64,000 bases of DNA from the NCBI RefSeq assembly GCF_051903065.1, contig NZ_CP178440.1. One strand, given 5' to 3'. A program made the translations under genes and the position numbers. The notes beneath the pieces are model-generated. The model searched no databases. It had not been told where the DNA came from and saw nothing but the letters and a program-made list of their open reading frames with translations. Shown one piece after another: positions 10,764-63,933 of the stretch (its first letter is position 1; every line of letters starts with the position of its first letter). This stretch comes from Escherichia coli. Its GTDB lineage: Bacteria > Pseudomonadota > Gammaproteobacteria > Enterobacterales > Enterobacteriaceae.

Positions 10764-11003
10764 GGGTGATGTTCTTTAAAAATCAGGATTTATTTCAGGC
10801 TCCGGCAATACGCATTTATTTGTTCTGTCAGTCATCCGGCTGGCAGGTAATGAGAACGCAGGAACAGAAGGAGGAAAACACCGTAGAACGTCAGACGCAG
10901 ATATGAAAAAAGCAGGTCAGGGACCTGCTTAATCCACGCCGTAAGAATTGCGCAACCAATTTTGACGGCATTGTTAACCAATTTGTCATAAGGAGTTTCA
11001 TTT

Positions 11004-11234
11004 ATGACAGTAAGTATTGTTTCACCTTCCGCAGCGGCTGTAAAGCCCCGCCGTCATCCCCGTTTCAGACGCGAAGACATCCCCGCGCCGGAAATTGACC
11101 CCGTGCTGAAAGCCTTCGGGCGACACATTGCCCGGAGTTTTCACCGGGGGCGTGGTGTACACATCCCCGCCATGAAAAACACGGCCTTCGGGCAGGTGCT
11201 CCGCACACTCGAACTGAAACGCGCTTTTAACTGA
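11004..11234 (+). CDS. Hypothetical small basic protein (76 aa) first gene after repeat copy A
   Basis: ORF with RBS aaggag 9 nt upstream of ATG. Confidence 0.4.
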   Translation: MTVSIVSPSAAAVKPRRHPRFRREDIPAPEIDPVLKAFGRHIARSFHRGRGVHIPAMKNTAFGQVLRTLELKRAFN

Positions 11235-23234: not shown

Positions 23235-23455
23235 TGCGGCAATAATCACACGGATTACCCGTGAACTGGTTGAACGACCAGATTATTTTCAGGGAAAGTG
23301 AGTGTGGTCAGCGTGCAGGGATATGAGCTATGATGTGCCCGGCGCTTGAGGCTTTCTGCCTCATGACGTGAAGGTGGTTTGTTGCCGTGTTGTGTGGCAG
23401 AAAGAAGATAGCCCCGTAGTAAGTTAATTTTCATTAACCACCACGAGGCATCCCT

Positions 23456-23668
23456 ATGTCTAGTCCACATCAGGATAGCCTCTTACCGCGCTTTGCGCAA
23501 GGAGAAGAAGGCCATGAAACTACCACGAAGTTCCCTTGTCTGGTGTGTGTTGATCGTGTGTCTCACACTGTTGATATTCACTTATCTGACACGAAAATCG
23601 CTGTGCGAGATTCGTTACAGAGACGGACACAGGGAGGTGGCGGCTTTCATGGCTTACGAATCCGGTAA
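23456..23668 (+). CDS. mok: Mok (modulation of killing) reading frame overlapping hok
   Basis: 70-aa ORF in alternate frame spanning hok. Confidence 0.55.
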
Positions 23669-27424: not shown

Positions 27425-27539
27425 ATGAAAATGAAGTTTGAGTTGGTTCAAATATAAGAATTTTTATGATTCAAAAAGATGACAATACGTCAGATAATTA
27501 GTATATTAATTACGTGGTTAATGCCACGTTAAAAATTGA

Positions 27540-27615
27540 AACTGAAAATCGCCGATGCAGGGAGGTCTGAACTCCCTGCATCGACTGTCCATAGAATCCT
27601 TAACGGAGGTTCCTA
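27540..27615 (-). ncRNA. finP: FinP antisense RNA (approximate), complementary to the traJ leader and RBS
   Basis: Stem-loop gatgcagggag-gtctgaact-ccctgcatc at about 27555-27583 in the traJ 5' leader; ends not determined. Confidence 0.4.
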
Positions 27616-28301
27616 TGTGTGCGCTGGATCGTAGAGAAAGGCCACTTAACAGTCAATCTGTAAATAAGTACATCCTTAACGTTCAGAATATCTACAGAAA
27701 TTCTCCCGTTCCGGTTTGTGTCCGTAACAAAAACCGGAAAATCCTTTATGCCAATGGGGCTTTTATTGAACTCTTTTCCAGAGAAGATAAACCCTTATCC
27801 GGAGAGAGTTATATACGTCTGCAGGTTGAAATTTTTCTTTCATCACTTGAATTGGAATGCCAGGCTCTTGGACATGGCTCTGCATTTTGTCGTCGTTTTA
27901 ATTTTCATGGCGAAATCTATCAGATAAGGATGGAGAATGTTTCTTTTTATAATGACGAATCTGTTGTTTTATGGCAAATTAATCCGTTTCCTGATTATCC
28001 ATTTTTTGCGTTAAGTCAGAGTGGAAGTAATACAAATACTTCTGATAAATTAACGATATGGAATGATCTTTCCCCCGGGACATTGCTTGTTTTCTCTTTT
28101 TATATGCTGGGTGTTGGTCATGCAACAATTGCCAGAGAATTGGGTATTACAGACAGAGCATCTGAGGATCGAATTAAACCAGTTAAACGGAAAATAAAAG
28201 AATTTTTTGAACACTTTGATTTATTCAGAGTGTCATGTATCTATAAAGGGAAAATAGATTTGCTATTAAATATAATTCGTGAATTTTATAGCGTTAAGTA
28301 A
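27615..28301 (+). CDS. traJ: Transfer operon activator TraJ
   Basis: ORF from ATG after RBS ggagg; position between traM and traY; ORF-track start is 20 codons upstream. Confidence 0.8.
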
Positions 28302-45606: not shown

Positions 45607-46966
45607 GCCTCTTTTTATTCTTTGTGCCGCCTTACTGACGGTGACGCCTGCAGCGTCAGCGGATGTGAACAGCGACATGAATCAGTTCTTTAACAAGCTG
45701 GGCTTCGCCTCCAATACCACACAGTCGGGCGTCTGGCAGGGGCAGGCTGCCGGCTATGCTTACGGCGGCTCCCTGTATGCCCGTACTCAGGTCAAAAATG
45801 TTCAGCTGATTTCCATGACGCTGCCGGATATCAATGCCGGATGTGGCGGCATCGATGCCTACCTCGGTTCGTTCAGTTTTATTAATGGCGAGCAGCTGCA
45901 GCGTTTTGTTAAGCAGATTATGAGCAATGCTGCCGGTTACTTTTTTGACCTTGCCCTGCAGACAACGGTGCCGGAAATCAAAACCGCAAAAGACTTCCTG
46001 CAGAAAATGGCAAGCGACATTAACAGTATGAACCTCAGTTCCTGCCAGGCGGCGCAGGGGATTATTGGCGGGCTTTTCCCCCGGACGCAGGTGTCCCAGC
46101 AAAAAGTCTGTCAGGACATTGCCGGTGAGAGCAATATTTTTGCTGACTGGGCGGCTTCCCGGCAGGGATGTACCGTTGGCGGGAAATCTGACAGTGTCAG
46201 GGATAAAGCCAGCGACAAGGATAAGGAGCGGGTGACCAAAAACATCAACATCATGTGGAATGCGCTTTCCAAAAACAGAATGTTTGACGGCAACAAAGAG
46301 CTGAAAGAGTTTGTGATGACGCTGACCGGCTCACTGGTGTTTGGTCCCAACGGCGAAATCACACCGCTGTCAGCCAGAACCACTGACCGCTCAATTATCC
46401 GGGCCATGATGGAAGGCGGCACAGCAAAAATTTATCACTGCAACGATTCTGATAAATGCCTGAAAGTGGTGGCAGACACACCGGTGACCATCAGCCGGGA
46501 TAATGCACTGAAGTCTCAGATTACTAAACTTCTGGCCAGCATTCAGAACAAGGCGGTCAGTGACACGCCTCTGGATGACAAGGAAAAAGGCTTTATTTCC
46601 AGTACCACCATCCCCGTCTTCAAATACCTGGTTGACCCGCAGATGCTCGGAGTTTCCAACAGCATGATTTACCAGCTGACGGACTATATCGGTTACGACA
46701 TCCTGCTGCAGTACATTCAGGAGCTGATACAGCAGGCCCGGGCGATGGTGGCCACAGGAAATTATGACGAAGCAGTTATCGAACATATTAACGACAACAT
46801 GAATGATGCCACCCGGCAGATTGCGGCGTTTCAGTCACAGGTGCAGGTACAGCAGGATGCGCTGCTGGTTGTCGATCGTCAGATGAGCTACATGCGTCAG
46901 CAGCTTTCCGCCCGCATGCTCAGTCGTTACCAGAACAACTATCACTTCGGAGGGAGCACGCTGTGA
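45593..46966 (+). CDS. traH: TraH
   Basis: 457-aa ORF with signal peptide. Confidence 0.9.
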   Translation: MLRIKPLFILCAALLTVTPAASADVNSDMNQFFNKLGFASNTTQSGVWQGQAAGYAYGGSLYARTQVKNVQLISMTLPDINAGCGGIDAYLGSFSFINGEQLQRFVKQIMSNAAGYFFDLALQTTVPEIKTAKDFLQKMASDINSMNLSSCQAAQGIIGGLFPRTQVSQQKVCQDIAGESNIFADWAASRQGCTVGGKSDSVRDKASDKDKERVTKNINIMWNALSKNRMFDGNKELKEFVMTLTGSLVFGPNGEITPLSARTTDRSIIRAMMEGGTAKIYHCNDSDKCLKVVADTPVTISRDNALKSQITKLLASIQNKAVSDTPLDDKEKGFISSTTIPVFKYLVDPQMLGVSNSMIYQLTDYIGYDILLQYIQELIQQARAMVATGNYDEAVIEHINDNMNDATRQIAAFQSQVQVQQDALLVVDRQMSYMRQQLSARMLSRYQNNYHFGGSTL

Positions 46967-49779
46967 ATGAAGTTTATGTGATTGCCGGTGGTGAGTGGTT
47001 GCGGAATAACCTGAACGCCATTGCCGCCTTTATGGGAACCAGGACGTGGGATTCCATTGAAAAAATTGCGCTCACATTGTCTGTTCTCGCGGTGGCCGTG
47101 ATGTGGGTACAGCGGCACAACGTGATGGATTTGCTGGGCTGGGTGGCCGTGTTTGTGCTTATCAGCCTGCTGGTTAATGTCCGCACATCGGTGCAGATTA
47201 TTGATAACAGTGACCTGGTCAAAGTTCACCGGGTGGATAATGTACCGGTCGGACTGGCGATGCCACTTTCACTGACGACCCGTATCGGGCATGCGATGGT
47301 GGCAGGTTATGAGATGGTGTTCGCTCAGCCTGACAGCGCCACCTACAGCAAGACAGGCATGCTGTTCGGGGCGAACCTGATTGTGAAAAGCACCGATTTC
47401 CTGTCCCGGAATCCGGAAATCATCAATCTGTTTCAGGACTACGTCCAGAACTGCGTGCTGGGTGATATTTACCTGAACCACAAATACACGCTGGAAGACC
47501 TGATGGCCTCCGGTGACCCCTACACGCTGATTTTTTCCCGGCCCAGCCCGCTACGGGGCGTTTATGACAGCAATAATAATTTCATAACCTGTAAAGATGC
47601 GTCGGTCACGCTGAAAGACAGGCTGAATCTCGATACAAAGACGGGAGGCAAGACCTGGCATTATTATGTGCAGCAGATATTTGGCGGCAGGCCGGACCCT
47701 GACCTGTTATTCAGACAACTGGTGAGTGACAGTTACAGTTATTTCTACGGCTCCAGCCAGTCTGCCAGCCAGATTATGCGCCAGAACGTCACCATGAATG
47801 CCCTGAAAGAGGGTATCACCAGTAATGCGGCCCGTAACGGTGATACCGCCAGCCTGGTCAGTCTGGCCACGACTTCGTCGATGGAGAAACAGCGTCTGGC
47901 ACATGTCTCCATTGGTCATGTGCTGATGCGAAACCTGCCGATGGTGCAGACCATTCTGGTGGGCATTACCATTGGTATCTTCCCGCTCCTGGTACTGGCG
48001 GCTGTCTTCAACAGACTGACGCTGTCTGTTCTGAGAGGCTATGTGTTTGCTCTGATGTGGTTCCAGACCTGGCCGTTGCTGTATGCCATTCTGAACAGTG
48101 CCATGACATTCTATGCAAAGCAGAATGGTGCACCGGTCGTGCTCTCTGAACTCTCTCAGATACAGCTGAAATACTCCGACCTGGCGTCCACTGCCGGATA
48201 TATATCTGTCATGATACCCCCGTTGTCATGGATGATGGTAAAAGGCCTTGGCGCAGGTTTTTCCAGCGTGTACAGCCATTTCGCTTCCTCTGCTATCAGT
48301 CCAACTGCCAGTGCGGCAGGTAGTGTGGTTGACGGTAATTACTCCTACGGCAACATGCAGACGGAAAACGTGAACGGCTTCAGCTGGAGCACCAACAGCA
48401 CCACGTCGTTTGGTCAGATGATGTACCAGACCGGCAGTGGCGCAACCGCCACACAGACCCGTGACGGTAATATGGTGATGGATGCAAGCGGAGCTATGTC
48501 CCGGTTACCGGTCGGCATCAATGCAACGCGTCAGATTGCGGCAGCACAACAGGAAATGTCCCGGGAAGCATCGAACAGAGCAGAAAGTGCCCTGCATGGG
48601 TTCAGCAGCAGTATTGCCAGTGCCTGGAACACGCTCAGTCAGTTTGGTTCTAACCGGGGGAGCAGTGATTCTGTCACAGGTGGTGCTGACAGCACCATGA
48701 GCGCACAGGACTCCATGATGGCCAGCCGTATGCGCAGTGCAGTGGAAAGCTATGCGAAGGCGCATAATATCAGTAATGAGCAGGCGACAAGAGAACTGGC
48801 ATCGAGAAGTACAAATGCGTCGCTTGGCCTTTACGGTGATGCTTATGCTAAAGGGCATTTAGGCATAAGTGTATTGGGTAACGGTGGAGGGGTTGGTCTC
48901 CAGGCCGGAGCTAAGGCAAGCATTGATGGCAGTGATCTTGACTCACATGAAGCCAGTAGTGGTTCACGGGCCAGCCATGATGCTCGTCATGATATCGATG
49001 CCAGAGCTACACAAGACTTTAAAGAGGCCAGCGATTACTTTACCAGCCGCAAAGTCAGTGAATCCGGCAGCCATACTGACAATAATGCCGATTCCCGCGT
49101 GGACCAGCTGTCTGCAGCCCTGAACTCAGCGAAACAGAGTTACGACCAGTACACGACGAATATGACCCGCAGCCATGAATATGCTGAAATGGCATCCCGT
49201 ACTGAAAGCATGAGTGGGCAGATGAGTGAAGATCTGTCGCAACAGTTTGCACAGTATGTGATGAAACACGCACCGCAGGATGCCGAAGCTATTCTGACAA
49301 ACACCAGTTCACCGGAGATTGCAGAACGCCGCCGGGCGATGGCGTGGTCTTTTGTGCAGGAACAGGTGCAGCCTGGTGTTGATAATGCCTGGCGTGAATC
49401 CCGTGGCGATATTGGTAAAGGAATGGAGAGCGTACCTTCGGGTGGTGGCAGCCAGGATATTATTGCTGACCATCAGGGGCATCAGGCCATTATTGATCAA
49501 AGAACGCAGGACAGTAATATCCGGAATGATGTAAAACATCAGGTTGATAATATGGTCACAGAATATAAAGGGAATATAGGTGATACTCAGAACAGTATCC
49601 GTGGCGAGGAAAATATTGTAAGAGGGCAGTATTCTGAACTACAAAATCATCATAAAACAGAAGCATTAACTCAGAATAATAAATATAATGAAGAAAAGCT
49701 GGCTCAGGAAAGAATACCTGGTGCTGATAGTCCGAAAGAGCTTTTAGAGAAAGCAAAGAGTTACCAGCATAAAGAATAA
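46963..49779 (+). CDS. traG: TraG (mating-pair stabilisation / entry-exclusion determinant)
   Basis: 938-aa ORF, N-terminal membrane domain. Confidence 0.9.
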   Translation: MNEVYVIAGGEWLRNNLNAIAAFMGTRTWDSIEKIALTLSVLAVAVMWVQRHNVMDLLGWVAVFVLISLLVNVRTSVQIIDNSDLVKVHRVDNVPVGLAMPLSLTTRIGHAMVAGYEMVFAQPDSATYSKTGMLFGANLIVKSTDFLSRNPEIINLFQDYVQNCVLGDIYLNHKYTLEDLMASGDPYTLIFSRPSPLRGVYDSNNNFITCKDASVTLKDRLNLDTKTGGKTWHYYVQQIFGGRPDPDLLFRQLVSDSYSYFYGSSQSASQIMRQNVTMNALKEGITSNAARNGDTASLVSLATTSSMEKQRLAHVSIGHVLMRNLPMVQTILVGITIGIFPLLVLAAVFNRLTLSVLRGYVFALMWFQTWPLLYAILNSAMTFYAKQNGAPVVLSELSQIQLKYSDLASTAGYISVMIPPLSWMMVKGLGAGFSSVYSHFASSAISPTASAAGSVVDGNYSYGNMQTENVNGFSWSTNSTTSFGQMMYQTGSGATATQTRDGNMVMDASGAMSRLPVGINATRQIAAAQQEMSREASNRAESALHGFSSSIASAWNTLSQFGSNRGSSDSVTGGADSTMSAQDSMMASRMRSAVESYAKAHNISNEQATRELASRSTNASLGLYGDAYAKGHLGISVLGNGGGVGLQAGAKASIDGSDLDSHEASSGSRASHDARHDIDARATQDFKEASDYFTSRKVSESGSHTDNNADSRVDQLSAALNSAKQSYDQYTTNMTRSHEYAEMASRTESMSGQMSEDLSQQFAQYVMKHAPQDAEAILTNTSSPEIAERRRAMAWSFVQEQVQPGVDNAWRESRGDIGKGMESVPSGGGSQDIIADHQGHQAIIDQRTQDSNIRNDVKHQVDNMVTEYKGNIGDTQNSIRGEENIVRGQYSELQNHHKTEALTQNNKYNEEKLAQERIPGADSPKELLEKAKSYQHKE

Positions 49780-49811: not shown

Positions 49812-50333
49812 ATGATTACACAACAAATTATCAGTAGTGAGTTGGAAGTTTTAAAGAAACATATTGACTCAGGAGATATTAGAATTCCGTCACTATGGCA
49901 GGGATTAAAACCCGGGTTTATAATCATGGGATGGATGATTTTTTGTCCCTTACTAATGTCATTTCTAATAACACAAAAGACAAGTGAAACACTCACTGCT
50001 GTGTTAGCCGGAGGATGGCTTGGACTTATTATTCTGTTTATTGTGGCAAGGATTAGAATGTTATATTTCTCTCTGCCGGAAGAATTCCTAAAGACATCAT
50101 CCGTAATGAGGATTATATCATCAAAACTGAAAGTGTATTTCATTGTGTATATGGGAATTATATTTTTATGGTCTTTTTTAGGTGGAGGGATTATATACGG
50201 TTTTGGTGCAATTTTAGTGACGGTTATTATGGCGTTCTTGATTCAATTAGATATCGGTAGATATCAATTTGTTGGTGTTATTGATGCAATCAATAGTTAC
50301 GTCAAAAACAAGAAGTTATCAAGAGTAAAATAA
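49812..50333 (+). CDS. traS: TraS entry exclusion inner-membrane protein
   Basis: Hydrophobic 173-aa ORF, AT-rich, between traG and traT. Confidence 0.75.
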   Translation: MITQQIISSELEVLKKHIDSGDIRIPSLWQGLKPGFIIMGWMIFCPLLMSFLITQKTSETLTAVLAGGWLGLIILFIVARIRMLYFSLPEEFLKTSSVMRIISSKLKVYFIVYMGIIFLWSFLGGGIIYGFGAILVTVIMAFLIQLDIGRYQFVGVIDAINSYVKNKKLSRVK

Positions 50334-50354: not shown

Positions 50355-51089
50355 ATGATGAAAACAAAAAAACTAATGATGGTTGCACTGGTCAGTTCCA
50401 CTCTGGTCCTTTCAGGGTGTGGTGCGATGAGCACAGCAATCAAGAAGCGTAACCTTGAGGTGAAGACTCAGATGAGTGAGACCATCTGGCTTGAACCCGC
50501 CAGCGAACGCACGGTATTTCTGCAGATCAAAAACACGTCTGATAAAGACATGAGTGGGCTGCAGGGCAAAATTGCTGATGCTGTGAAAGCAAAAGGATAT
50601 CAGGTGGTGACTTCTCCGGATAAAGCCTACTACTGGATTCAGGCGAATGTGCTGAAGGCCGATAAGATGGATCTGCGGGAATCTCAGGGATGGCTGAACC
50701 GTGGTTATGAAGGCGCAGCAGTTGGTGCAGCGTTAGGTGCCGGTATCACCGGATATAATTCCAGTTCTGCCGGTGCCACACTCGGTGTGGGCCTTGCTGC
50801 CGGTCTGGTGGGTATGGCTGCAGATGCGATGGTGGAAGATGTGAACTATACCATGATCACGGATGTGCAGATTGCAGAGCGTACTAAGGCAACGGTGACA
50901 ACGGATAATGTTGCCGCCCTGCGTCAGGGCACATCAGGTGCGAAAATTCAGACCAGTACTGAAACAGGTAACCAGCATAAATACCAGACCCGTGTGGTCT
51001 CAAATGCGAACAAGGTTAACCTGAAATTTGAAGAGGCGAAGCCTGTTCTCGAAGACCAGCTGGCCAAATCAATCGCAAATATTCTCTGA
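50355..51089 (+). CDS. traT: TraT surface exclusion / serum-resistance lipoprotein
   Basis: Lipobox LSGC; near-identical to F TraT as recalled. Confidence 0.95.
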
Positions 51090-51291
51090 ACCTCGTCAGG
51101 AGGCTGGTCTGACCGGCCTCCTTGCTGACGCCTCGCGTTGCTCGTTGTCCAACCCCGGGACGTAACAAAATAAATTTTGTCACTTCCCGACGTTTCCGAA
51201 ATAAATATGAAAACACTGAGCGGTTGTGCAAATTCTTTGTGCGACCGTGAAGTGTTGCCGGCGAAGCCGGGATCTTCCGGAGAAAGTCATT

Positions 51292-52029
51292 ATGACATCA
51301 GACAATATCGCTGAATATGTTGGTGAGAATAATCAATTTACTGAGAAGCCTGTAACTGAATACCCCCCGGTGATACAGAATAATACAGTGACCACTAAAG
51401 ACTATCTGTACAGCAATAATATTGATACTGACCTTTTAGTGGTTATCGGAGGGCTTATTGTTATATTGTTTCTCATGATGCTTATCATGTACTTTATTAA
51501 TTCTCTCAGGCATAAGGAATTAACTGAAATACTGACAAAAATATCTTTTCCTGAAAAATCCGGGAGCAATTCGCTTAAACCGGAAGCGGTCAGCTGTAAT
51601 TTGTTGTCCCTGTGTGTGCTGGCACCGGTATTCTTTACACCCAGAAAGCTGGCTGAAGTTTCCAGGGAGATCATCGTGGCGAGTGCGCAGGAAATTGCAT
51701 GGACGCCGGGGAGCAGTCGTATTGATGGCCACCAGGCGGAGAATATCACCTGGGCGATTTCATCGCAGTCTCCTGCCGATAAGTATGATCTCATCAATAA
51801 AACGTCCCGTGTTTCTCCTGACAGTGGCCGTTTTTATGAACCGGACACAGTTCTGGATCACCGTGAGCGGGTACGCCTTTTTGTTCAGATCCAGTTTCCG
51901 CATGGGAGTGACTGGTCTGAAGTATTGCGCCTGACTGACATTGTTACAGAGAAGGTCTCTTCCGGCAGGGCTGCAGGCGGGTATCACCACCGGCATACAG
52001 GGTACACCTGGTCTGTTTCTGTGAATTAA
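51292..52029 (+). CDS. Hypothetical protein (about 245 aa, one predicted transmembrane helix) between traT and traD
   Basis: ORF from ATG 51292; not part of the core F tra gene set as I recall. Confidence 0.5.
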
Positions 52030-52079
52030 CCCCACATCATCCTTTTCTGCCCTGTTCCAGATTTTCCCGGAGTTTCATC

Positions 52080-54341
52080 ATGAGTTTTAACGCAAAGGAT
52101 ATGACCCAGGGCGGTCAGATTGCGTCCATGCGTATCCGCATGTTCAGCCAGATCGCCAATATCATGCTTTACTGCCTGTTTATTTTTTTCTGGATACTCG
52201 TTGGTCTGGTTTTATGGGTAAAAATAAGCTGGCAGACGTTTGTGAACGGCTGTATTTACTGGTGGTGTACCACGCTGGAAGGCATGCGGGATTTAATCAA
52301 GTCCCAGCCGGTCTATGAGATCCAGTATTACGGCAAAACCTTCCGGATGAATGCTGCTCAGGTACTGCATGATAAATATATGATCTGGTGCGGAGAGCAG
52401 CTATGGTCCGCATTCGTTCTGGCCACAGTTGTGGCACTGGTTATTTGCCTGATTACCTTCTTTGTTGTCTCCTGGATTCTGGGGCGTCAGGGTAAACAAC
52501 AGAGCGAAAATGAAGTCACAGGTGGTCGTCAGCTGACAGACAATCCGAAAGACGTTGCCCGGATGCTGAAAAAAGACGGCAAGGACTCCGATATCCGGAT
52601 TGGCGACCTGCCGATTATCCGGGATTCTGAAATCCAGAACTTCTGTCTGCACGGCACGGTCGGGGCCGGTAAGTCGGAAGTTATCCGTCGTCTGGCCAAC
52701 TACGCCCGTCAGCGCGGTGATATGGTGGTGATTTATGACCGTTCAGGGGAATTTGTTAAAAGTTACTATGATCCCTCCATCGATAAGATCCTGAATCCGC
52801 TGGATGCCCGCTGTGCCGCCTGGGATTTATGGAAGGAGTGTCTGACACAGCCGGATTTTGATAATACGGCAAATACCCTGATCCCGATGGGCACAAAAGA
52901 GGACCCGTTCTGGCAGGGTTCAGGACGTACCATTTTTGCGGAAGCGGCGTACCTGATGCGTAATGACCCCAACCGCAGCTACAGCAAACTGGTGGACACA
53001 CTGCTTTCCATCAAAATCGAAAAACTGCGTACCTTCCTGCGTAATTCACCGGCGGCCAACCTGGTGGAAGAGAAAATTGAGAAAACGGCGATTTCCATCC
53101 GTGCTGTGCTGACCAACTACGTGAAAGCCATCCGTTACCTGCAGGGGATTGAGCATAACGGTGAGTCTTTTACCATCCGTGACTGGATGCGGGGTGTCCG
53201 GGAAGATCAGAAAAACGGCTGGCTGTTTATCTCGTCGAATGCCGACACCCATGCCTCCCTGAAGCCGGTGATCTCCATGTGGCTGTCCATTGCCATTCGT
53301 GGTCTGCTGGCAATGGGAGAAAACCGTAACCGTCGTGTGTGGTTTTTCTGTGATGAGCTACCCACGTTACACAAACTGCCGGACCTGGTGGAGATCCTGC
53401 CGGAAGCCCGTAAGTTCGGTGGCTGTTATGTGTTTGGTATCCAGTCCTATGCCCAGCTGGAAGATATCTACGGTGAGAAAGCGGCTGCCACGCTGTTTGA
53501 CGTCATGAACACCCGTGCCTTTTTCCGTTCTCCCAGCCATAAGATTGCAGAGTTCGCTGCCGGTGAGATTGGTGAGAAAGAGCACCTGAAAGCCAGCGAG
53601 CAGTACTCCTACGGTGCTGATCCGGTACGTGACGGGGTATCGACCGGTAAGGATATGGAGCGCCAGACGCTGGTCAGTTATTCCGACATTCAGTCTCTGC
53701 CGGATTTGACCTGTTATGTCACCCTGCCCGGACCGTATCCGGCAGTAAAACTCTCACTGAAATATCAGGCACGTCCGAAGGTTGCCCCTGAGTTTATTCC
53801 GCGTGACATCAACCCGGAAATGGAGAACCGCCTGAGCGCCGTACTTGCCGCAAGGGAAGCAGAAGGTCGTCAGATGGCCAGCCTCTTCGAACCGGATGTG
53901 CCGGAAGTTGTTTCCGGAGAAGACGTGACTCAGGCTGAACAGCCGCAACAGCCGCAACAGCCGCAACAGCCGCAACAGCCGCAACAGCCGCAACAGCCGC
54001 AACAGCCGCAACAGCCGCAACAGCCGCAACAGCCGCAACAGCCGCAACAGCCGCAACAGCCGGTGTCTCCCGCCATCAACGATAAGAAGTCAGATTCAGG
54101 TGTGAATGTTCCGGCAGGGGGGATCGAGCAGGAGCTGAAAATGAAACCGGAAGAAGAGATGGAACAGCAACTGCCACCCGGGATCAGTGAATCCGGTGAA
54201 GTGGTGGATATGGCCGCTTATGAGGCATGGCAACAGGAAAATCATCCGGACATCCAGCAGCAGATGCAGCGTCGTGAAGAGGTGAACATTAATGTGCACC
54301 GGGAGCGCGGGGAGGATGTTGAGCCGGGAGATGATTTCTGA
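52080..54341 (+). CDS. traD: TraD type IV coupling protein
   Basis: 753-aa ORF, Walker [10 protein letters not shown]-terminal QPQ repeat and acidic tail. Confidence 0.95.
53940..54062 (+). repeat. Tandem 9-bp repeat cagccgcaa, about 13.7 copies, in-frame within traD (QPQ repeats)
   Basis: Counted directly in sequence. Confidence 0.95.
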
Positions 54342-57300
54342 TGATGAGTATCGCGCAGGTCAGATCGGCCGGAAGTGCCGGTAACTATTATACCGACAAG
54401 GATAATTACTATGTGCTGGGCAGCATGGGAGAACGCTGGGCCGGCAGGGGGGCTGAACAGCTGGGACTGCAGGGCAGTGTCGATAAGGATGTTTTTACCC
54501 GTCTTCTGGAGGGAAGGCTGCCGGACGGAGCGGATCTAAGCCGCATGCAGGATGGCAGTAACAGGCATCGTCCCGGCTACGACCTGACCTTCTCCGCCCC
54601 CAAAAGTGTCTCCATGATGGCCATGTTAGGTGGCGATAAGCGCCTGATTGATGCACATAACCAGGCCGTGGACTTTGCTGTTCGTCAGGTGGAGGCGCTG
54701 GCCTCCACACGGGTGATGACGGACGGACAGTCAGAAACGGTGCTGACCGGTAATCTGGTGATGGCACTGTTTAACCACGACACTAGTCGCGATCAGGAAC
54801 CACAGTTACACACGCATGCGGTGGTGGCTAATGTCACGCAGCATAACGGTGAGTGGAAGACACTGAGCAGTGACAAAGTGGGGAAAACGGGGTTCATTGA
54901 GAATGTGTACGCTAATCAGATTGCCTTTGGCAGGCTCTATCGGGAAAAACTGAAAGAGCAGGTTGAGGCGCTGGGCTATGAAACCGAAGTGGTGGGTAAG
55001 CACGGTATGTGGGAGATGCCGGGCGTACCGGTGGAGGCCTTTTCCGGACGCTCACAGGCTATCCGAGAGGCCGTCGGGGAAGATGCCTCGCTAAAATCCC
55101 GGGATGTGGCGGCACTGGATACGCGAAAATCCAAACAGCACGTCGATCCTGAAGTCAGAATGGCTGAATGGATGCAGACGCTGAAGGAAACCGGGTTCGA
55201 CATCCGGGCATATCGTGACGCGGCGGATCAGCGTGCGGAGACCCGCACGCAGGCGCCCGGGGCTGTTTCACAGGAGGGGCCGGATGTGCAGCAGGCGGTG
55301 ACACAGGCGATTGCCGGATTAAGTGAACGAAAAGTGCAGTTTACGTACACGGACGTGCTGGCCAGAACAGTCGGCATACTGCCGCCGGAAAATGGTGTGA
55401 TTGAACGGGCACGCGCCGGTATCGATGAGACCATCAGCCGTGAGCAACTCATCCCCCTTGACCGTGAGAAGGGGCTGTTCACGTCCGGGATTCATGTGCT
55501 CGATGAACTGTCAGTCCGGGCACTCAGTCGCGATATCATGAAACAGAACCGGGTGACCGTACATCCGGAGAAAAGTGTCCCCCGGACGGCCGGCTACAGT
55601 GATGCCGTCAGTGTTCTGGCACAGGACCGTCCGTCGCTGGCCATTGTGTCCGGGCAGGGCGGTGCAGCCGGGCAGCGTGAGCGGGTGGCTGAACTGGTCA
55701 TGATGGCCCGGGAGCAGGGGCGGGAGGTGCAGATTATCGCTGCTGACCGTCGCTCGCAGATGAACCTGAAGCAGGATGAACGGCTGTCCGGTGAGCTGAT
55801 AACCGGACGTCGTCAGCTGCCGGAAGGCATGGCCTTCACGCCGGGCAGTACTGTTATCGTTGACCAGGGCGAAAAACTCTCCCTGAAAGAGACGTTAACC
55901 CTGCTAGACGGTGCCGCACGTCATAACGTACAGGTCCTGATAACCGACAGCGGGCAGCGAACCGGTACAGGCAGTGCGCTGATGGCCATGAAGGATGCCG
56001 GGGTTAACATATATCGCTGGCAGGGCGGAGAGCAACGACCGGCAACCATCATCAGTGAACCGGACCGTAATGTCCGCTATGCCCGGCTGGCCGGGGACTT
56101 TGCGGCCAGCGTGAAAGCCGGAGAAGAGAGCGTGGCACAGGTCAGCGGGGTACGGGAACAGGCCATACTGACACAGGCCATTCGCAGTGAGCTGAAAACA
56201 CAGGGCGTGCTCGGACACCCGGAGGTAACCATGACCGCCCTGTCACCGGTCTGGCTGGACAGCCGGAGCCGTTATCTGCGGGATATGTACCGCCCGGGAA
56301 TGGTGATGGAGCAGTGGAACCCGGAGACACGCAGTCATGACCGCTATGTTATCGACCGGGTGACGGCGCAGAGTCACAGCCTGACCCTGCGGGATGTGCA
56401 GGGCGAAACGCAGGTGGTGCGTATTTCCTCCCTGGACAGCAGCTGGTCGCTGTTCCGGCCGGAAAAAATGCCGGTGGCAGACGGCGAGCGACTGAGGGTG
56501 ACCGGGAAAATTCCCGGACTCCGAGTCTCCGGCGGTGACCGCCTGCAGGTGGCATCCGTCAGTGAAGATGTGATGACGGTTGTTGTGCCGGGGCGGGCTG
56601 AACCGGCCTCCCTGCCTGTGAGCGATTCACCGTTCACGGCACTGAAGCTGGAGAATGGCTGGGTGGAAACGCCCGGGCATTCCGTCAGCGACAGTGCGAA
56701 GGTTTTTGCCTCCGTCACACAGATGGCAATGGACAAGGCCACCCTGAACGGTCTGGCCCGCAGCGGTCGTGATGTCCGGCTGTATTCCTCACTGGATGAA
56801 ACCCGTACTGCGGAAAAACTTGCCCGCCATCCGTCCTTTACGGTGGTTTCTGAGCAGATAAAGGCGCGGGCCGGTGAGACATCGCTGGAAACGGCTATCA
56901 GTCATCAGAAGTCCGCACTTAACACGCCGGCACAGCAGGCCATTCATCTTGCCCTTCCGGTGGTGGAAAGTAAAAACCTGGCCTTCAGCCATGTGGACCT
57001 GCTGACAGAGGCAAAGTCGTTTGCTGCAGAAGGAACCAGTTTTGCTGACCTGGGGCGGGAAATCGATGCGCAGATAAAACGGGGCGATTTACTGCATGTG
57101 GATGTGGCAAAAGGTTATGGCACAGACCTGCTGGTTTCCCGTGCGTCGTATGAGGCTGAAAAAAGCATTCTTCGCCATATTCTCGAAGGTAAGGAGGCGG
57201 TCACGCCGCTGATGGAGAGAGTACCTGGCGAACTCATGGAGAAACTGACATCAGGACAGCGCGCCGCCACCCGCATGATACTGGAAACGCCCGACCGTTT

Positions 57301-59611
57301 CACGGTGGTGCAGGGCTATGCCGGTGTGGGTAAGACCACACAGTTCCGGGCGGTGATGTCAGCCGTGAACATGCTGCCGGAGAGTGAGCGTCCCCGTGTC
57401 GTTGGGCTGGGCCCCACGCACCGTGCGGTCGGGGAGATGCGCAGCGCCGGCGTGGATGCACAGACACTGGCGTCCTTTCTGCATGACACGCAACTGCAGC
57501 AGCGCAGCGGAGAAACGCCGGATTTCAGCAACACGCTGTTCCTGCTCGATGAGAGCTCAATGGTGGGCAATACCGACATGGCACGGGCATACGCCCTGAT
57601 TGCGGCCGGTGGTGGTCGTGCCGTGGCCAGCGGTGACACGGACCAGCTGCAGGCCATCGCGCCCGGTCAGCCTTTCCGTCTCCAGCAGACGCGCAGTGCT
57701 GCCGATGTGGCCATCATGAAGGAGATTGTGCGTCAGACGCCGGAACTGCGGGAGGCGGTATACAGCCTGATTAACCGGGATGTGGAAAGGGCACTGTCCG
57801 GGCTTGAGAGTGTGAAACCGTCTCAGGTGCCACGTCAGGAGGGCGCATGGGCACCGGAGCACTCCGTGACGGAGTTCAGTCACAGCCAGGAAGCAAAACT
57901 GGCAGAAGCGCAGCAGAAGGCGATGCTGAAAGGCGAGGCTTTCCCGGATGTCCCCATGACACTGTATGAAGCCATTGTCCGCGACTATACCGGCAGGACA
58001 CCGGAAGCACGGGAGCAGACGCTGATTGTCACGCACCTGAATGAGGACCGGCGCGTGCTGAACAGCATGATTCATGATGCACGGGAAAAGGCCGGTGAGC
58101 TGGGAAAAGAGCAGGTCATGGTGCCTGTCCTGAACACAGCGAATATACGTGACGGAGAACTGCGTCGTCTTTCCACCTGGGAGACACATCGGGACGCACT
58201 TGCCCTGGTGGATAATGTGTATCACCGGATTGCCGGTATCAGCAGGGATGACGGGCTGATAACCCTGCAGGATGCGGAAGGTAACACGCGGCTGATTTCG
58301 CCCCGGGAGGCGGTGGCTGAAGGTGTCACACTGTACACCCCGGACAAAATCCGGGTGGGGACCGGTGACCGGATGCGCTTCACGAAGAGTGACCGGGAGC
58401 GTGGTTATGTGGCCAACAGCGTCTGGACGGTGACAGCGGTATCCGGTGACAGTGTCACGCTGTCGGACGGACAGCAGACCCGGGTGATTCGCCCCGCCCA
58501 GGAGCAGGCAGAGCAACATATTGACCTGGCCTATGCCATCACCGCCCACGGTGCGCAGGGTGCGAGTGAAACCTTTGCCATTGCGCTTGAAGGCACGGAA
58601 GGTAACCGGAAACTGATGGCCGGCTTTGAGTCAGCCTACGTGGCCCTGTCGCGTATGAAGCAGCATGTGCAGGTGTACACCGATAACCGTCAGGGCTGGA
58701 CGGATGCCATTAACAATGCCGTACAGAAAGGAACTGCCCACGATGTGCTGGAGCCGAAACCGGACCGGGAGGTCATGAATGCAGAGCGGCTGTTCAGTAC
58801 GGCGCGGGAGCTGCGGGACGTGGCGGCAGGGCGTGCCGTTCTTCGTCAGGCGGGGCTTGCCGGGGGAGACAGTCCTGCACGGTTTATTGCACCGGGGCGT
58901 AAATATCCACAGCCGTATGTGGCACTGCCGGCGTTTGACCGTAACGGCAAATCAGCCGGTATCTGGCTGAACCCGCTGACCTCGGATGATGGAAACGGGC
59001 TGCGGGGATTCAGTGGTGAAGGCCGTGTGAAAGGCAGCGGGGATGCGCAGTTCGTGGCCCTGCAGGGCAGCCGTAACGGAGAAAGCCTGCTGGCTGATAA
59101 TATGCAGGATGGTGTCCGGATTGCCCGTGATAATCCTGACAGTGGTGTGGTGGTAAGAATCGCCGGTGAAGGCCGTCCGTGGAATCCCGGTGCCATCACC
59201 GGTGGCCGCGTGTGGGGGGATATCCCGGACAACAGCGTCCAGCCGGGAGCCGGAAATGGCGAGCCGGTCACGGCAGAGGTACTGGCACAGCGGCAGGCTG
59301 AAGAGGCCATCCGCCGTGAAACGGAACGCCGTGCGGATGAAATTGTCCGTAAAATGGCAGAGAACAAACCTGACCTGCCGGATGGCAAAACAGAGCAGGC
59401 TGTCAGGGAGATTGCCGGGCAGGTGCGTGAGCGGGCTGCCATAACTGAACGGGAAACTGCGCTGCCGGAGAGTGTGCTGCGTGAACCACAACGGGAGCGG
59501 GAAGCGGTCCGGGAGGTTGCCCGGGAAAATCTGCTGCAGGAGCGTCTGCAGCAGATGGAGCGGGATATGGTCCGTGACCTGCAGAAAGAGAAAACCCTGG
59601 GCGGAGACTGA
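54341..59611 (+). CDS. traI: TraI relaxase-helicase
   Basis: 1756-aa ORF; start overlaps traD stop. Confidence 0.95.
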   Translation: MMSIAQVRSAGSAGNYYTDKDNYYVLGSMGERWAGRGAEQLGLQGSVDKDVFTRLLEGRLPDGADLSRMQDGSNRHRPGYDLTFSAPKSVSMMAMLGGDKRLIDAHNQAVDFAVRQVEALASTRVMTDGQSETVLTGNLVMALFNHDTSRDQEPQLHTHAVVANVTQHNGEWKTLSSDKVGKTGFIENVYANQIAFGRLYREKLKEQVEALGYETEVVGKHGMWEMPGVPVEAFSGRSQAIREAVGEDASLKSRDVAALDTRKSKQHVDPEVRMAEWMQTLKETGFDIRAYRDAADQRAETRTQAPGAVSQEGPDVQQAVTQAIAGLSERKVQFTYTDVLARTVGILPPENGVIERARAGIDETISREQLIPLDREKGLFTSGIHVLDELSVRALSRDIMKQNRVTVHPEKSVPRTAGYSDAVSVLAQDRPSLAIVSGQGGAAGQRERVAELVMMAREQGREVQIIAADRRSQMNLKQDERLSGELITGRRQLPEGMAFTPGSTVIVDQGEKLSLKETLTLLDGAARHNVQVLITDSGQRTGTGSALMAMKDAGVNIYRWQGGEQRPATIISEPDRNVRYARLAGDFAASVKAGEESVAQVSGVREQAILTQAIRSELKTQGVLGHPEVTMTALSPVWLDSRSRYLRDMYRPGMVMEQWNPETRSHDRYVIDRVTAQSHSLTLRDVQGETQVVRISSLDSSWSLFRPEKMPVADGERLRVTGKIPGLRVSGGDRLQVASVSEDVMTVVVPGRAEPASLPVSDSPFTALKLENGWVETPGHSVSDSAKVFASVTQMAMDKATLNGLARSGRDVRLYSSLDETRTAEKLARHPSFTVVSEQIKARAGETSLETAISHQKSALNTPAQQAIHLALPVVESKNLAFSHVDLLTEAKSFAAEGTSFADLGREIDAQIKRGDLLHVDVAKGYGTDLLVSRASYEAEKSILRHILEGKEAVTPLMERVPGELMEKLTSGQRAATRMILETPDRFTVVQGYAGVGKTTQFRAVMSAVNMLPESERPRVVGLGPTHRAVGEMRSAGVDAQTLASFLHDTQLQQRSGETPDFSNTLFLLDESSMVGNTDMARAYALIAAGGGRAVASGDTDQLQAIAPGQPFRLQQTRSAADVAIMKEIVRQTPELREAVYSLINRDVERALSGLESVKPSQVPRQEGAWAPEHSVTEFSHSQEAKLAEAQQKAMLKGEAFPDVPMTLYEAIVRDYTGRTPEAREQTLIVTHLNEDRRVLNSMIHDAREKAGELGKEQVMVPVLNTANIRDGELRRLSTWETHRDALALVDNVYHRIAGISRDDGLITLQDAEGNTRLISPREAVAEGVTLYTPDKIRVGTGDRMRFTKSDRERGYVANSVWTVTAVSGDSVTLSDGQQTRVIRPAQEQAEQHIDLAYAITAHGAQGASETFAIALEGTEGNRKLMAGFESAYVALSRMKQHVQVYTDNRQGWTDAINNAVQKGTAHDVLEPKPDREVMNAERLFSTARELRDVAAGRAVLRQAGLAGGDSPARFIAPGRKYPQPYVALPAFDRNGKSAGIWLNPLTSDDGNGLRGFSGEGRVKGSGDAQFVALQGSRNGESLLADNMQDGVRIARDNPDSGVVVRIAGEGRPWNPGAITGGRVWGDIPDNSVQPGAGNGEPVTAEVLAQRQAEEAIRRETERRADEIVRKMAENKPDLPDGKTEQAVREIAGQVRERAAITERETALPESVLREPQREREAVREVARENLLQERLQQMERDMVRDLQKEKTLGGD

Positions 59612-62703: not shown

Positions 62704-62952
62704 TATGTGGCAGAACTCCGGACACTGACGCCTTCGCGTTGCTCAGTTGTCCAACCCCGGAAACGGGAAAAAGCAAGTTTTCCCCGCTCCCGGCGTTTCT
62801 GCAATAAAAAGCAGGGGCATGGAGGTCGTCGTAACCAGACAGGAATGTGGTATTATCGCGGCGGGTGTCTGAGCCTTTCTGGTTCAGGCAAGACGCAGGT
62901 ACCAGAAATGCGAAGACCCCACTCGTTAATCCATTAACTCGTGAGGTCTGCA

Positions 62953-63012
62953 TGAAGTACTTAGCACTACTGATTGTAGCCTCTTCTTTGCAGAGAGGTC
63001 AAAGTTTATGAC
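62953..63012 (+). CDS. Leader reading frame (19 aa) translationally coupled to the hok-family toxin (mok/pndC-like)
   Basis: ATG 62953, stop overlaps toxin start as ATGA. Confidence 0.4.
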
Positions 63013-63158
63013 GAAATATGCCCTTATCGGGTTGCTCGCCGTGTGTGCCACGGTATTGTGTTTTTCACTGATATTCAGGGAACGGTTATGTGAACTGAAT
63101 ATTCACAGGGGAAATACAGTGGTGCAGGTAACTCTGGCCTACGAAGCACGGAAGTAAG
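63009..63158 (+). CDS. Hok-family toxin, SrnB/PndA type (49 aa)
   Basis: Hand translation MTKYALIGLLAVCATVLCFSLIFRERLCELNIHRGNTVVQVTLAYEARK; not in ORF track (under 60 aa). Confidence 0.75.
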
Positions 63159-63689: not shown

Positions 63690-63933
63690 CTAAAATGTAG
63701 CGACATCACATTCTTGCCTGTTTGTGGTGTGCGTGATAGATTGCTGATCGTTTAAGGAATTTTGTGGCTGGCCACGCCATAAGGTGGCAGGGAACTGGTT
63801 CTGATGTGGATGTACAGGAGCCAGAAAAGCGAAAACCCCGATAATCTTCTTTAACTTTGGCGAGTCAGAAAGATTACCGGGGCTAACAAGAAACTGCATA
63901 GAAGCTGTTGCTCTATGCGGGGAGTATAGTTAT

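Follow-up and report, generated by a model that had tools for sequence, protein, structure and literature searches.

The traT-traD interval of an IncFII plasmid from Escherichia coli: yhfA and its relatives in F-like transfer regions

Described systems near the locus

The gene named yhfA in plasmid R100 was reported in 2009 to lack a counterpart in F (PMC2762410), and a preprint on ST131 plasmids links it to traC by co-selection. Our literature search returned only the name, the remark on F and this link, and no study of yhfA function. Here we analyse a stretch of 64,000 nt from Escherichia coli (contig NZ_CP178440.1; the whole stretch is called the window below) in which an open reading frame (ORF) lies between traT and traD. 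A sequence-only reading of the window had singled it out as an extra ORF for a protein of about 245 aa with one hydrophobic segment, in an interval described as short and non-coding in F, and had proposed an accessory function related to exclusion or to the envelope. The ORF proved to be real, and the existence of the gene is already known: its annotation dates from the sequencing of R100, and its absence from F has been known since at least 2009. What seems undescribed in the literature searched is the membership of yhfA in an orphan family of three clades that keeps to the traT-traD slot of enterobacterial F-like plasmids, together with its predicted topology and domain, weak constraint and recurrent loss.

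With TraS of F-like plasmids YhfA shares an inner-membrane location (predicted for YhfA), AT-richness, fast evolution, divergent allelic forms and a place in the traG-traD interval. TraS is small and mostly hydrophobic, whereas YhfA combines one transmembrane (TM) helix with a sizeable soluble domain; the TraS model NF010304 matches the window traS (1.4e-65) and YhfA matches no NCBIfam model. Allele types matched to exclusion groups, as expected of a TraS-like protein, were not seen for YhfA in the small sample compared. TraT is recognised by PF05818 together with a lipoprotein signal peptide; the N-terminus of YhfA is acidic, with no segment resembling a signal peptide. TrbA, TrbH, TrbJ, TrbF and TraP are dispensable for transfer and variably present among F-like plasmids. 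The likeness of YhfA to these and similar proteins is in kind only (small, membrane-associated, encoded in the tra operon), YhfA having no homology to them and being absent from F. Eex of SXT/R391, an inner-membrane protein, acts through a cytoplasmic region, whereas the variable part of YhfA is the N-terminal tail with the TM region and not the C-terminus; no search gave sequence similarity between the two. VirB8/TraE-like bitopic subunits of type IV secretion systems (T4SS) carry an NTF2-like periplasmic domain after an N-terminal TM segment, with the N-terminus inside, a description that YhfA does not fit. Finally, YhfA matches none of the known fertility-inhibition or anti-phage defence families in Pfam, NCBIfam, PADLOC or PHROGs.

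Identity, coding capacity and distribution of yhfA

The product of the ORF is about 97% identical over 245 aa to the YhfA protein of R100/NR1 (WP_000199905.1), with few substitutions and the same length, and the 990-nt traT-traD spacers of the two plasmids share 98.7% nucleotide identity. The gene occupies the same slot, on the same strand, in the window, in R100/NR1, in other alleles and in distant clades (see below), and the window protein shows the family architecture: an acidic N-terminal tail, one TM helix, a basic linker and a C-terminal domain with PGxxRxD, W and GG...GY motifs. We have little doubt that the ORF is yhfA of R100 and a real gene. The limit at 51226 given by the sequence-only reading is that of a GTG-extended frame: 51226-52029 (+) is the maximal GTG-started frame, of 267 codons. 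Because a GGAG motif lies 9 nt upstream of the ATG at 51292, because the N-termini of homologues align from that Met, and because the coding sequence annotated by RefSeq in R100/NR1 measures 738 nt, the ATG at 51292, giving 245 aa, is supported as the probable start in preference to the GTG at 51226.

51292-52029, + strand: yhfA coding sequence, R100-type 'hypothetical protein', 245 aa plus stop (from the ORF list)
51279-51282, + strand: GGAG ribosome-binding site (RBS) of yhfA, 9 nt before the ATG; found 6-9 nt upstream in all alleles examined, pSE11-2 clade included
51614-51934, + strand: alternative-frame ORF of 106 codons, not a gene (nonsynonymous to synonymous ratio, pN/pS, above 1 in that frame)

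Selection was estimated from Nei-Gojobori counts on ten yhfA alleles. In the annotated frame pN/pS was 0.43 overall; codons 1-100 gave 0.59 and codons 101-245 gave 0.30, against 0.86-1.36 in the two remaining frames of that strand. The GGAG motif was kept in 11 of the 11 alleles examined. The comparison with neighbouring genes is given below.

Window against five loci other than NR1: yhfA 0.29-0.57; traT 0.04-0.31; traD 0.07-0.14
Deep pairs within the Klebsiella clade: yhfA 0.41-0.46; traT 0.04-0.06; traD 0.14
Close pairs: yhfA about 1 or higher (0.62-1.26); traT 0.04-0.09; traD 0.05-0.09

Since the annotated frame has a lower pN/pS than the other frames and the RBS is conserved, yhfA appears, from these substitution patterns, to be translated and to evolve under purifying selection, which is weaker than on its neighbours by a factor of three to eight.

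The spacer of 990 nt matches 4,030 PLSDB records. At least 80% of it is held by 1,771; most of the others match only the first 180 nt or so, corresponding to a shared leader. The ORF itself is present in 1,886 plasmid records (nearly complete in 1,798), almost always annotated "hypothetical protein". Conservation in related plasmids, which the sequence-only reading had named as a test of its proposal, is thus borne out by these records and by two distant clades. Among complete E. coli genomes 1,209 of 5,426 (22%) carry yhfA; the copies are plasmid-borne in 1,398 of 1,402 cases, and the PGAP name is again "hypothetical protein". As about 1,800 plasmid records carry the ORF and pN/pS falls below 1 in the annotated frame alone, its conservation is far beyond chance. 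Many 213-aa database 'proteins' are yhfA alleles that shift into the 51614-51934 frame at differing points, which indicates repeated independent frameshifts or, in some cases, assembly errors. Tir of R100 (transfer inhibition of RP4) was considered as a candidate identity for YhfA; its gene presumably lies elsewhere in R100, near the replication/pem region.

Two further clades were recovered. A weak HMMER match (P0139) led to the pSE11-2 clade, whose protein of 230 aa is 28% identical to window YhfA. It is found in the traT-traD interval of about 46 records; some 40 plasmids, from E. coli, E. albertii and E. marmotae, carry it intact. In these plasmids traG is followed by a traS-like gene, traT, the yhfA-like gene, a DUF2726 gene and traD, with TraD 46%, TraG 36% and TraT 80% identical to the window proteins. 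Inspection of the sequences upstream of divergent traD genes revealed the third clade, in Klebsiella IncFIIK plasmids, where a 'hypothetical protein' of 217-230 aa is encoded between traT and traD. This clade matched the family profile with an hhalign probability of 95.5% (E 1.4e-8) and window YhfA by BLASTP with 23% identity over 211 aa (E 2e-10), and has the same architecture. By tblastn the IncFIIK-type gene is present in 2,322 records, nearly complete in 1,670; most are from Klebsiella, some from Serratia, Raoultella, Enterobacter and Citrobacter. The three clades, mutually 19-28% identical, together account for roughly 3,500 of 72,556 plasmid records. Besides the initiator Met, 16 residues are invariant across them: L105, V109, P112, P139, G140, R143, D145, W154, G179, P184, Q201, L214, G229, G230, G237 and Y238.

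Outside this family no relatives were found. Searches of Pfam and NCBIfam with all three clades, and of PADLOC and PHROGs with the window protein, gave no family match (in NCBIfam none at E up to 1); sequence-profile searches of the PDB gave no match, and no fold match was obtained either. Word-seeded protein searches with three queries returned no relatives beyond the YhfA family. An exhaustive HMMER search of 1.84 billion representatives with the YhfA profile produced 55 matches, all of them YhfA family members or fragments, and missed the Klebsiella clade. The check by homology and structure advised in the sequence-only reading thus yielded a family in three clades and no match to a known family or fold. 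A scan of 100,044 species-representative genomes gave only two contigs, carrying yhfA at 96% identity under implausible taxon labels: a Lachnospiraceae metagenome-assembled genome (L025, 5001-5735) and Acinetobacter idrijaensis (L026, 3-410). Plasmid DNA of enterobacterial origin, mis-binned or present as a contaminant, is the most likely explanation for both.

Protein architecture, operon context and variation of the interval

The single hydrophobic segment noticed at the outset corresponds to residues 48-66. The protein can be divided as follows.

51292-51432, + strand: N-terminal tail, aa 1-47; acidic (net charge -6), predicted periplasmic, within the hypervariable AT-rich half
51433-51489, + strand: TM helix, aa 48-66; mean Kyte-Doolittle 3.22; AlphaFold helix 43-85, with a predicted local distance difference test score (pLDDT) of 75-82 there
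51490-51585, + strand: basic juxtamembrane linker, aa 67-98 (Lys/Arg counts in seven divergent alleles)
51586-52026, + strand: conserved C-terminal alpha/beta domain, aa 99-245, about 145 residues; predicted cytoplasmic

A second, weaker hydrophobic stretch (aa 99-117, Kyte-Doolittle 1.74) is modelled as a beta-strand. One equivalent hydrophobic segment is present in all three clades, preceded by a tail whose net charge varies from -3 to -7 with the allele. Per 15 residues, Lys and Arg number 0-1 before the TM helix and 2-6 after it (seven alleles, three clades). YhfA is quite probably membrane-anchored, a predicted single-pass inner-membrane protein. Because the positive residues follow the helix and do not precede it, the positive-inside rule points to a periplasmic N-tail and a cytoplasmic C-domain, an orientation that we consider rather likely. 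Full-length AlphaFold2 modelling with 13 sequences was poor (pLDDT 46), only the helix being confident. The C-domain modelled from two clades reached pLDDT 67 and a predicted template modelling score (pTM) of 0.65, with the order beta-alpha-beta-beta-beta-alpha-beta; in the ferredoxin-like sandwich (ACT/RAM-like domains, ribosomal protein S6) the core order is beta-alpha-beta-beta-alpha-beta, and the YhfA model to be set against it is of moderate confidence. The two halves of the gene differ in GC fraction, 0.37 in the N-part against 0.52 in the C-part; traS has 0.34. In the R100 clade, very divergent alleles (P0029, P0076) have replaced codons 11-100, the N-terminal half, while the C-domains remain 61-94% identical; in L009 and L010 codons 11-100 are saturated at both site classes (pN 0.54-0.61, pS 0.74-0.80).

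The genes around yhfA and the signals preceding and following it are these.

46963-49779, + strand: traG (ORF list)
49812-50333, + strand: traS (NCBIfam TraS, 1.4e-65)
50355-51089, + strand: traT (Pfam TraT, PF05818, 3e-83)
51098-51122, + strand: GC-rich hairpin just after the traT stop (RNA fold)
51212-51256 and 51258-51270, + strand: two-hairpin element just upstream of the yhfA RBS (RNAalifold, 10 leaders)
52030-52079, + strand: yhfA-traD spacer of 50 nt with the traD RBS (GGAG) and no terminator-like site
52080-54341, + strand: traD (ORF list)
54341-59611, + strand: traI (ORF list)

The leader (51085-51300) folds with -82.8 kcal/mol (z = -5.7). In the 10 leaders aligned, of R100, F, pSLT and IncFIIK type, the two-hairpin element comprises 21 pairs, 3 of them with compensatory changes and 18 of the 21 kept in all 10; the three exceptions belong to the second hairpin, and each is lost in a single sequence. 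The element is probably part of a traT terminator or attenuator; in plasmids without yhfA it stands directly before traD. Rfam has no family at the yhfA stretch, and consensus scans for promoters and terminators around yhfA gave chance-level results. Since yhfA and traD lie on the same strand, after the traT hairpins, and are separated by 50 nt with no terminator between them, yhfA would be expected to be co-transcribed with traD-traI as part of the tra operon. In a common allele (L008, 2501-3280) the loss of 10 nt at the 3' end adds 14 residues to YhfA and makes its stop overlap the traD start by 4 nt, which suggests possible translational coupling in that variant.

In F (NC_002483) the gap from the end of traT (89551) to the start of traD (89804) measures 252 nt and contains no annotated gene, in agreement with the sequence-only reading. 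Global alignment of the two gap types delimited the difference.

51281-52066, no strand assigned: segment of 786 nt in R100-type plasmids, replaced by 48 unrelated nt in F-type plasmids

Aligned with the yhfA region, the 48 F-specific nt score 19, not significantly more than shuffled sequences (17.5 +/- 2.5), so that the polarity of the change cannot be read at the F-type junction; a simple deletion origin of the F-type gap was considered and rejected. Most simply, presence of yhfA would be ancestral and F would represent a loss, since the same slot is held in lineages whose TraD proteins are only 46-72% identical. F and several relatives also carry a vapBC toxin-antitoxin pair on the opposite strand between traD and traI (L027, plasmid F, 9967-10592; L019, 5753-6378; also L002, L006 and L014). 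The window has no vapBC insert there, traD and traI meeting at 54341.

The gene is missing from F-type and pSLT-like plasmids, the latter without a remnant. In about 650 Klebsiella plasmids only codons 1-38 are left, followed by a stop and, after about 50 nt, by traD; this remnant is clearly the product of an internal deletion and shows the polarity of loss in that lineage. Elsewhere yhfA has been disrupted by IS1 and IS66-family insertions and by many independent frameshifts to 213-aa products. The IS66-family element is ISEc8-like and yields a truncated allele of 180 aa, which alone represents 921 member sequences. The traT-traD gap is an indel hot spot, with IS1, the IS66-family element, the DUF2726 gene, vapBC and an extra 86-aa ORF among its contents. 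Gap variants were located as follows in related loci.

L003, 1-3000
L006, 2073-2333
L016, 6831-7851
L017, 6835-7203
NZ_CP063761 (H1)

Six chimeric proteins (P0014, P0016, P0074, P0075, P0079 and P0096) join a YhfA part to FinO, TraX, TraI, TraU, TraT or TraK domains; they seem to reflect deletions or rearrangements of the tra region of which one endpoint lies in yhfA. Since plasmids with the same TraD N-terminus occur with and without it, yhfA is very probably a dispensable accessory gene.

The remainder of the window identifies it as a pHK01-like IncFII plasmid. Rfam matches include three antisense RNAs described from pHK01, together with two sok RNAs, the traJ 5' UTR/FinP and CopA.

47682-47767, - strand: AS-traG
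57190-57266, - strand: AS-traI
10907-11009, - strand: AS-pc01
23340-23516 and 62863-63020, + strand: two sok RNAs
27512-27621: traJ 5' UTR/FinP
63827-63916, - strand: CopA

The backbone is mosaic: the window traS, at 173 aa as in F, fits the curated equivalog model for TraS and stands beside an R100-type yhfA. At the traS position R100/NR1 has a 161-aa ORF left as 'hypothetical protein' by PGAP. The C-terminal region of TraD contains 13 tandem QQP repeats (aa 623-661; window 53946-54062); on the opposite strand the repeats form an ORF of CAG/CTG type.

Candidate functions of YhfA and their bearing

The explanation that we regard as the best overall, and to which we give somewhat less than an even chance, is that yhfA is the first gene after the post-traT hairpins, co-transcribed with traD-traI. 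Its product would combine an acidic periplasmic N-tail, one TM helix, a basic linker and a cytoplasmic alpha/beta domain, and would serve as a dispensable modulator on the cytoplasmic side of the inner membrane, with TraD or the inner-membrane platform of the T4SS as its target; it would tune transfer or its host cost rather than exclude incoming plasmids. Taken by itself, an action of YhfA on the transfer machinery is possible and rather doubtful. Because F, pSLT-like plasmids and many Klebsiella plasmids without yhfA are typed conjugative by PLSDB, we infer that YhfA is not a building block of the conjugation machine. A number of results weigh against the modulator explanation. Our analyses gave no direct evidence of a link between YhfA and TraD or any Tra protein, nor did the searches show sequence or fold similarity to known conjugation proteins. 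Over roughly its N-terminal 150 residues, TraD of the yhfA-positive window does not differ from that of a yhfA-negative F-type plasmid, and co-adaptation of YhfA with this N-terminal part was rejected for that reason. The topology is taken from the positive-inside rule only, and the C-domain model comes from a shallow alignment. Furthermore, two of the three close yhfA pairs have a pN/pS at or above 1 (1.03 for the window and NR1, 1.26 for L020 and L024), and such values, together with the weak constraint, also fit drift towards loss or a gene engaged in conflict.

Drift towards loss would make yhfA a relic: a former function or a passenger, functionless in most plasmids, decaying while it persists by linkage to the tra operon. 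The ratios near 1 between close alleles speak for this, as do the frequent parallel losses (the F-type replacement, the 38-codon Klebsiella deletion, the IS1 and IS66 insertions, the frameshifts) and the number of sequences represented by the truncated 180-aa allele. However, the frames are intact in three clades at 19-28% identity, with 16 invariant residues and the architecture kept, the RBS is conserved, and deep comparisons give a pN/pS of 0.3-0.46, below that of the other frames; a neutral ORF of 740 nt would not have remained open over such divergence. We judge the relic explanation unlikely. We give a practically negligible chance to the idea that the stretch is non-coding and kept for an RNA or DNA role, for instance as a leader or promoter of traD. 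Strong and conserved structure in the 200 nt upstream and an alternative frame open for 106 codons might be cited in its favour, but substitutions are frame-specific (0.43 against at least 0.86 in other same-strand frames), the architecture is kept at identities where DNA can no longer be aligned, no Rfam family lies here, and F-type plasmids express traD without the stretch.

A low probability is also what we assign to YhfA as an exclusion or immunity factor, a third partner of TraS and TraT that would block entry of, or damage from, related plasmids. The position directly after traS-traT in all three clades, the predicted membrane anchor, an N-part close to traS in GC fraction and the divergent N-half allele swaps (L009, L010), which with the fast evolution recall the allelic types of traS, are consistent with it, and Eex of SXT/R391, an inner-membrane protein with a cytoplasmic specificity region, would be a precedent. 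Against this, YhfA has no similarity to TraS or TraT models, F fully excludes with traS and traT alone, and the large, predicted cytoplasmic domain is the conserved and not the variable part. YhfA proteins about 97% identical stand beside a TraS of F type (window) and one of R100 type (NR1), and in a small sample the N-part allele did not track identity of the TraG C-terminus. Covariation of yhfA with TraS or TraG was sought and none was seen in this sample. Of the function first proposed for the ORF, the accessory character and the envelope location (as a predicted single-pass inner-membrane protein) have held up; for exclusion we found nothing beyond position and, loosely, the turnover and AT-richness of the N-half.

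A gene engaged in conflict could alternatively be directed at other elements, through inhibition of the fertility of co-resident plasmids or interference with pilus-dependent phages by means of the cytoplasmic domain. yhfA is an accessory gene confined to plasmids, present in some and absent from others and under weak constraint, and it adjoins the gene for the coupling protein, the usual target of known fertility-inhibition factors: Osa, PifC and FipA act on type IV coupling proteins. The slot carries other cargo elsewhere (DUF2726, vapBC), so that genes unrelated to transfer are tolerated in it. The absence of any match to known fertility-inhibition or defence proteins in the four databases named above argues against this explanation, and synteny across lineages with TraD 46-72% identical argues for a link to the tra operon rather than for mobile cargo; we consider it improbable. 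A more far-reaching explanation, fairly unlikely in our estimate, would make YhfA the founder of an undescribed ancestral component of enterobacterial F-like tra regions, without detectable relatives and possibly with a new fold, either regulating TraD from its membrane anchor or serving as a third, independent exclusion or competition factor, and never studied because F lacks it. If this were true, presence or absence of yhfA would help to explain differences in transfer or exclusion between F and clinical IncFII/IncFIIK plasmids.

As a whole, the evidence points to no surprising mechanism for yhfA. Many clinical F-like resistance plasmids have yhfA in this position. In E. coli and Klebsiella, extended-spectrum beta-lactamase and carbapenemase genes reside mainly on IncFII and IncFIIK plasmids, and what is known of the mechanism of their transfer comes almost entirely from F, itself without yhfA. 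A gene fixed in the tra operon in about 3,500 plasmid records and lacking a family model therefore represents a concrete gap that can be tested cheaply. Should yhfA influence transfer, exclusion or the cost to the host, plasmid epidemiology would have in it a natural variable; without any measurable effect, it would be an example of a decaying operon passenger.

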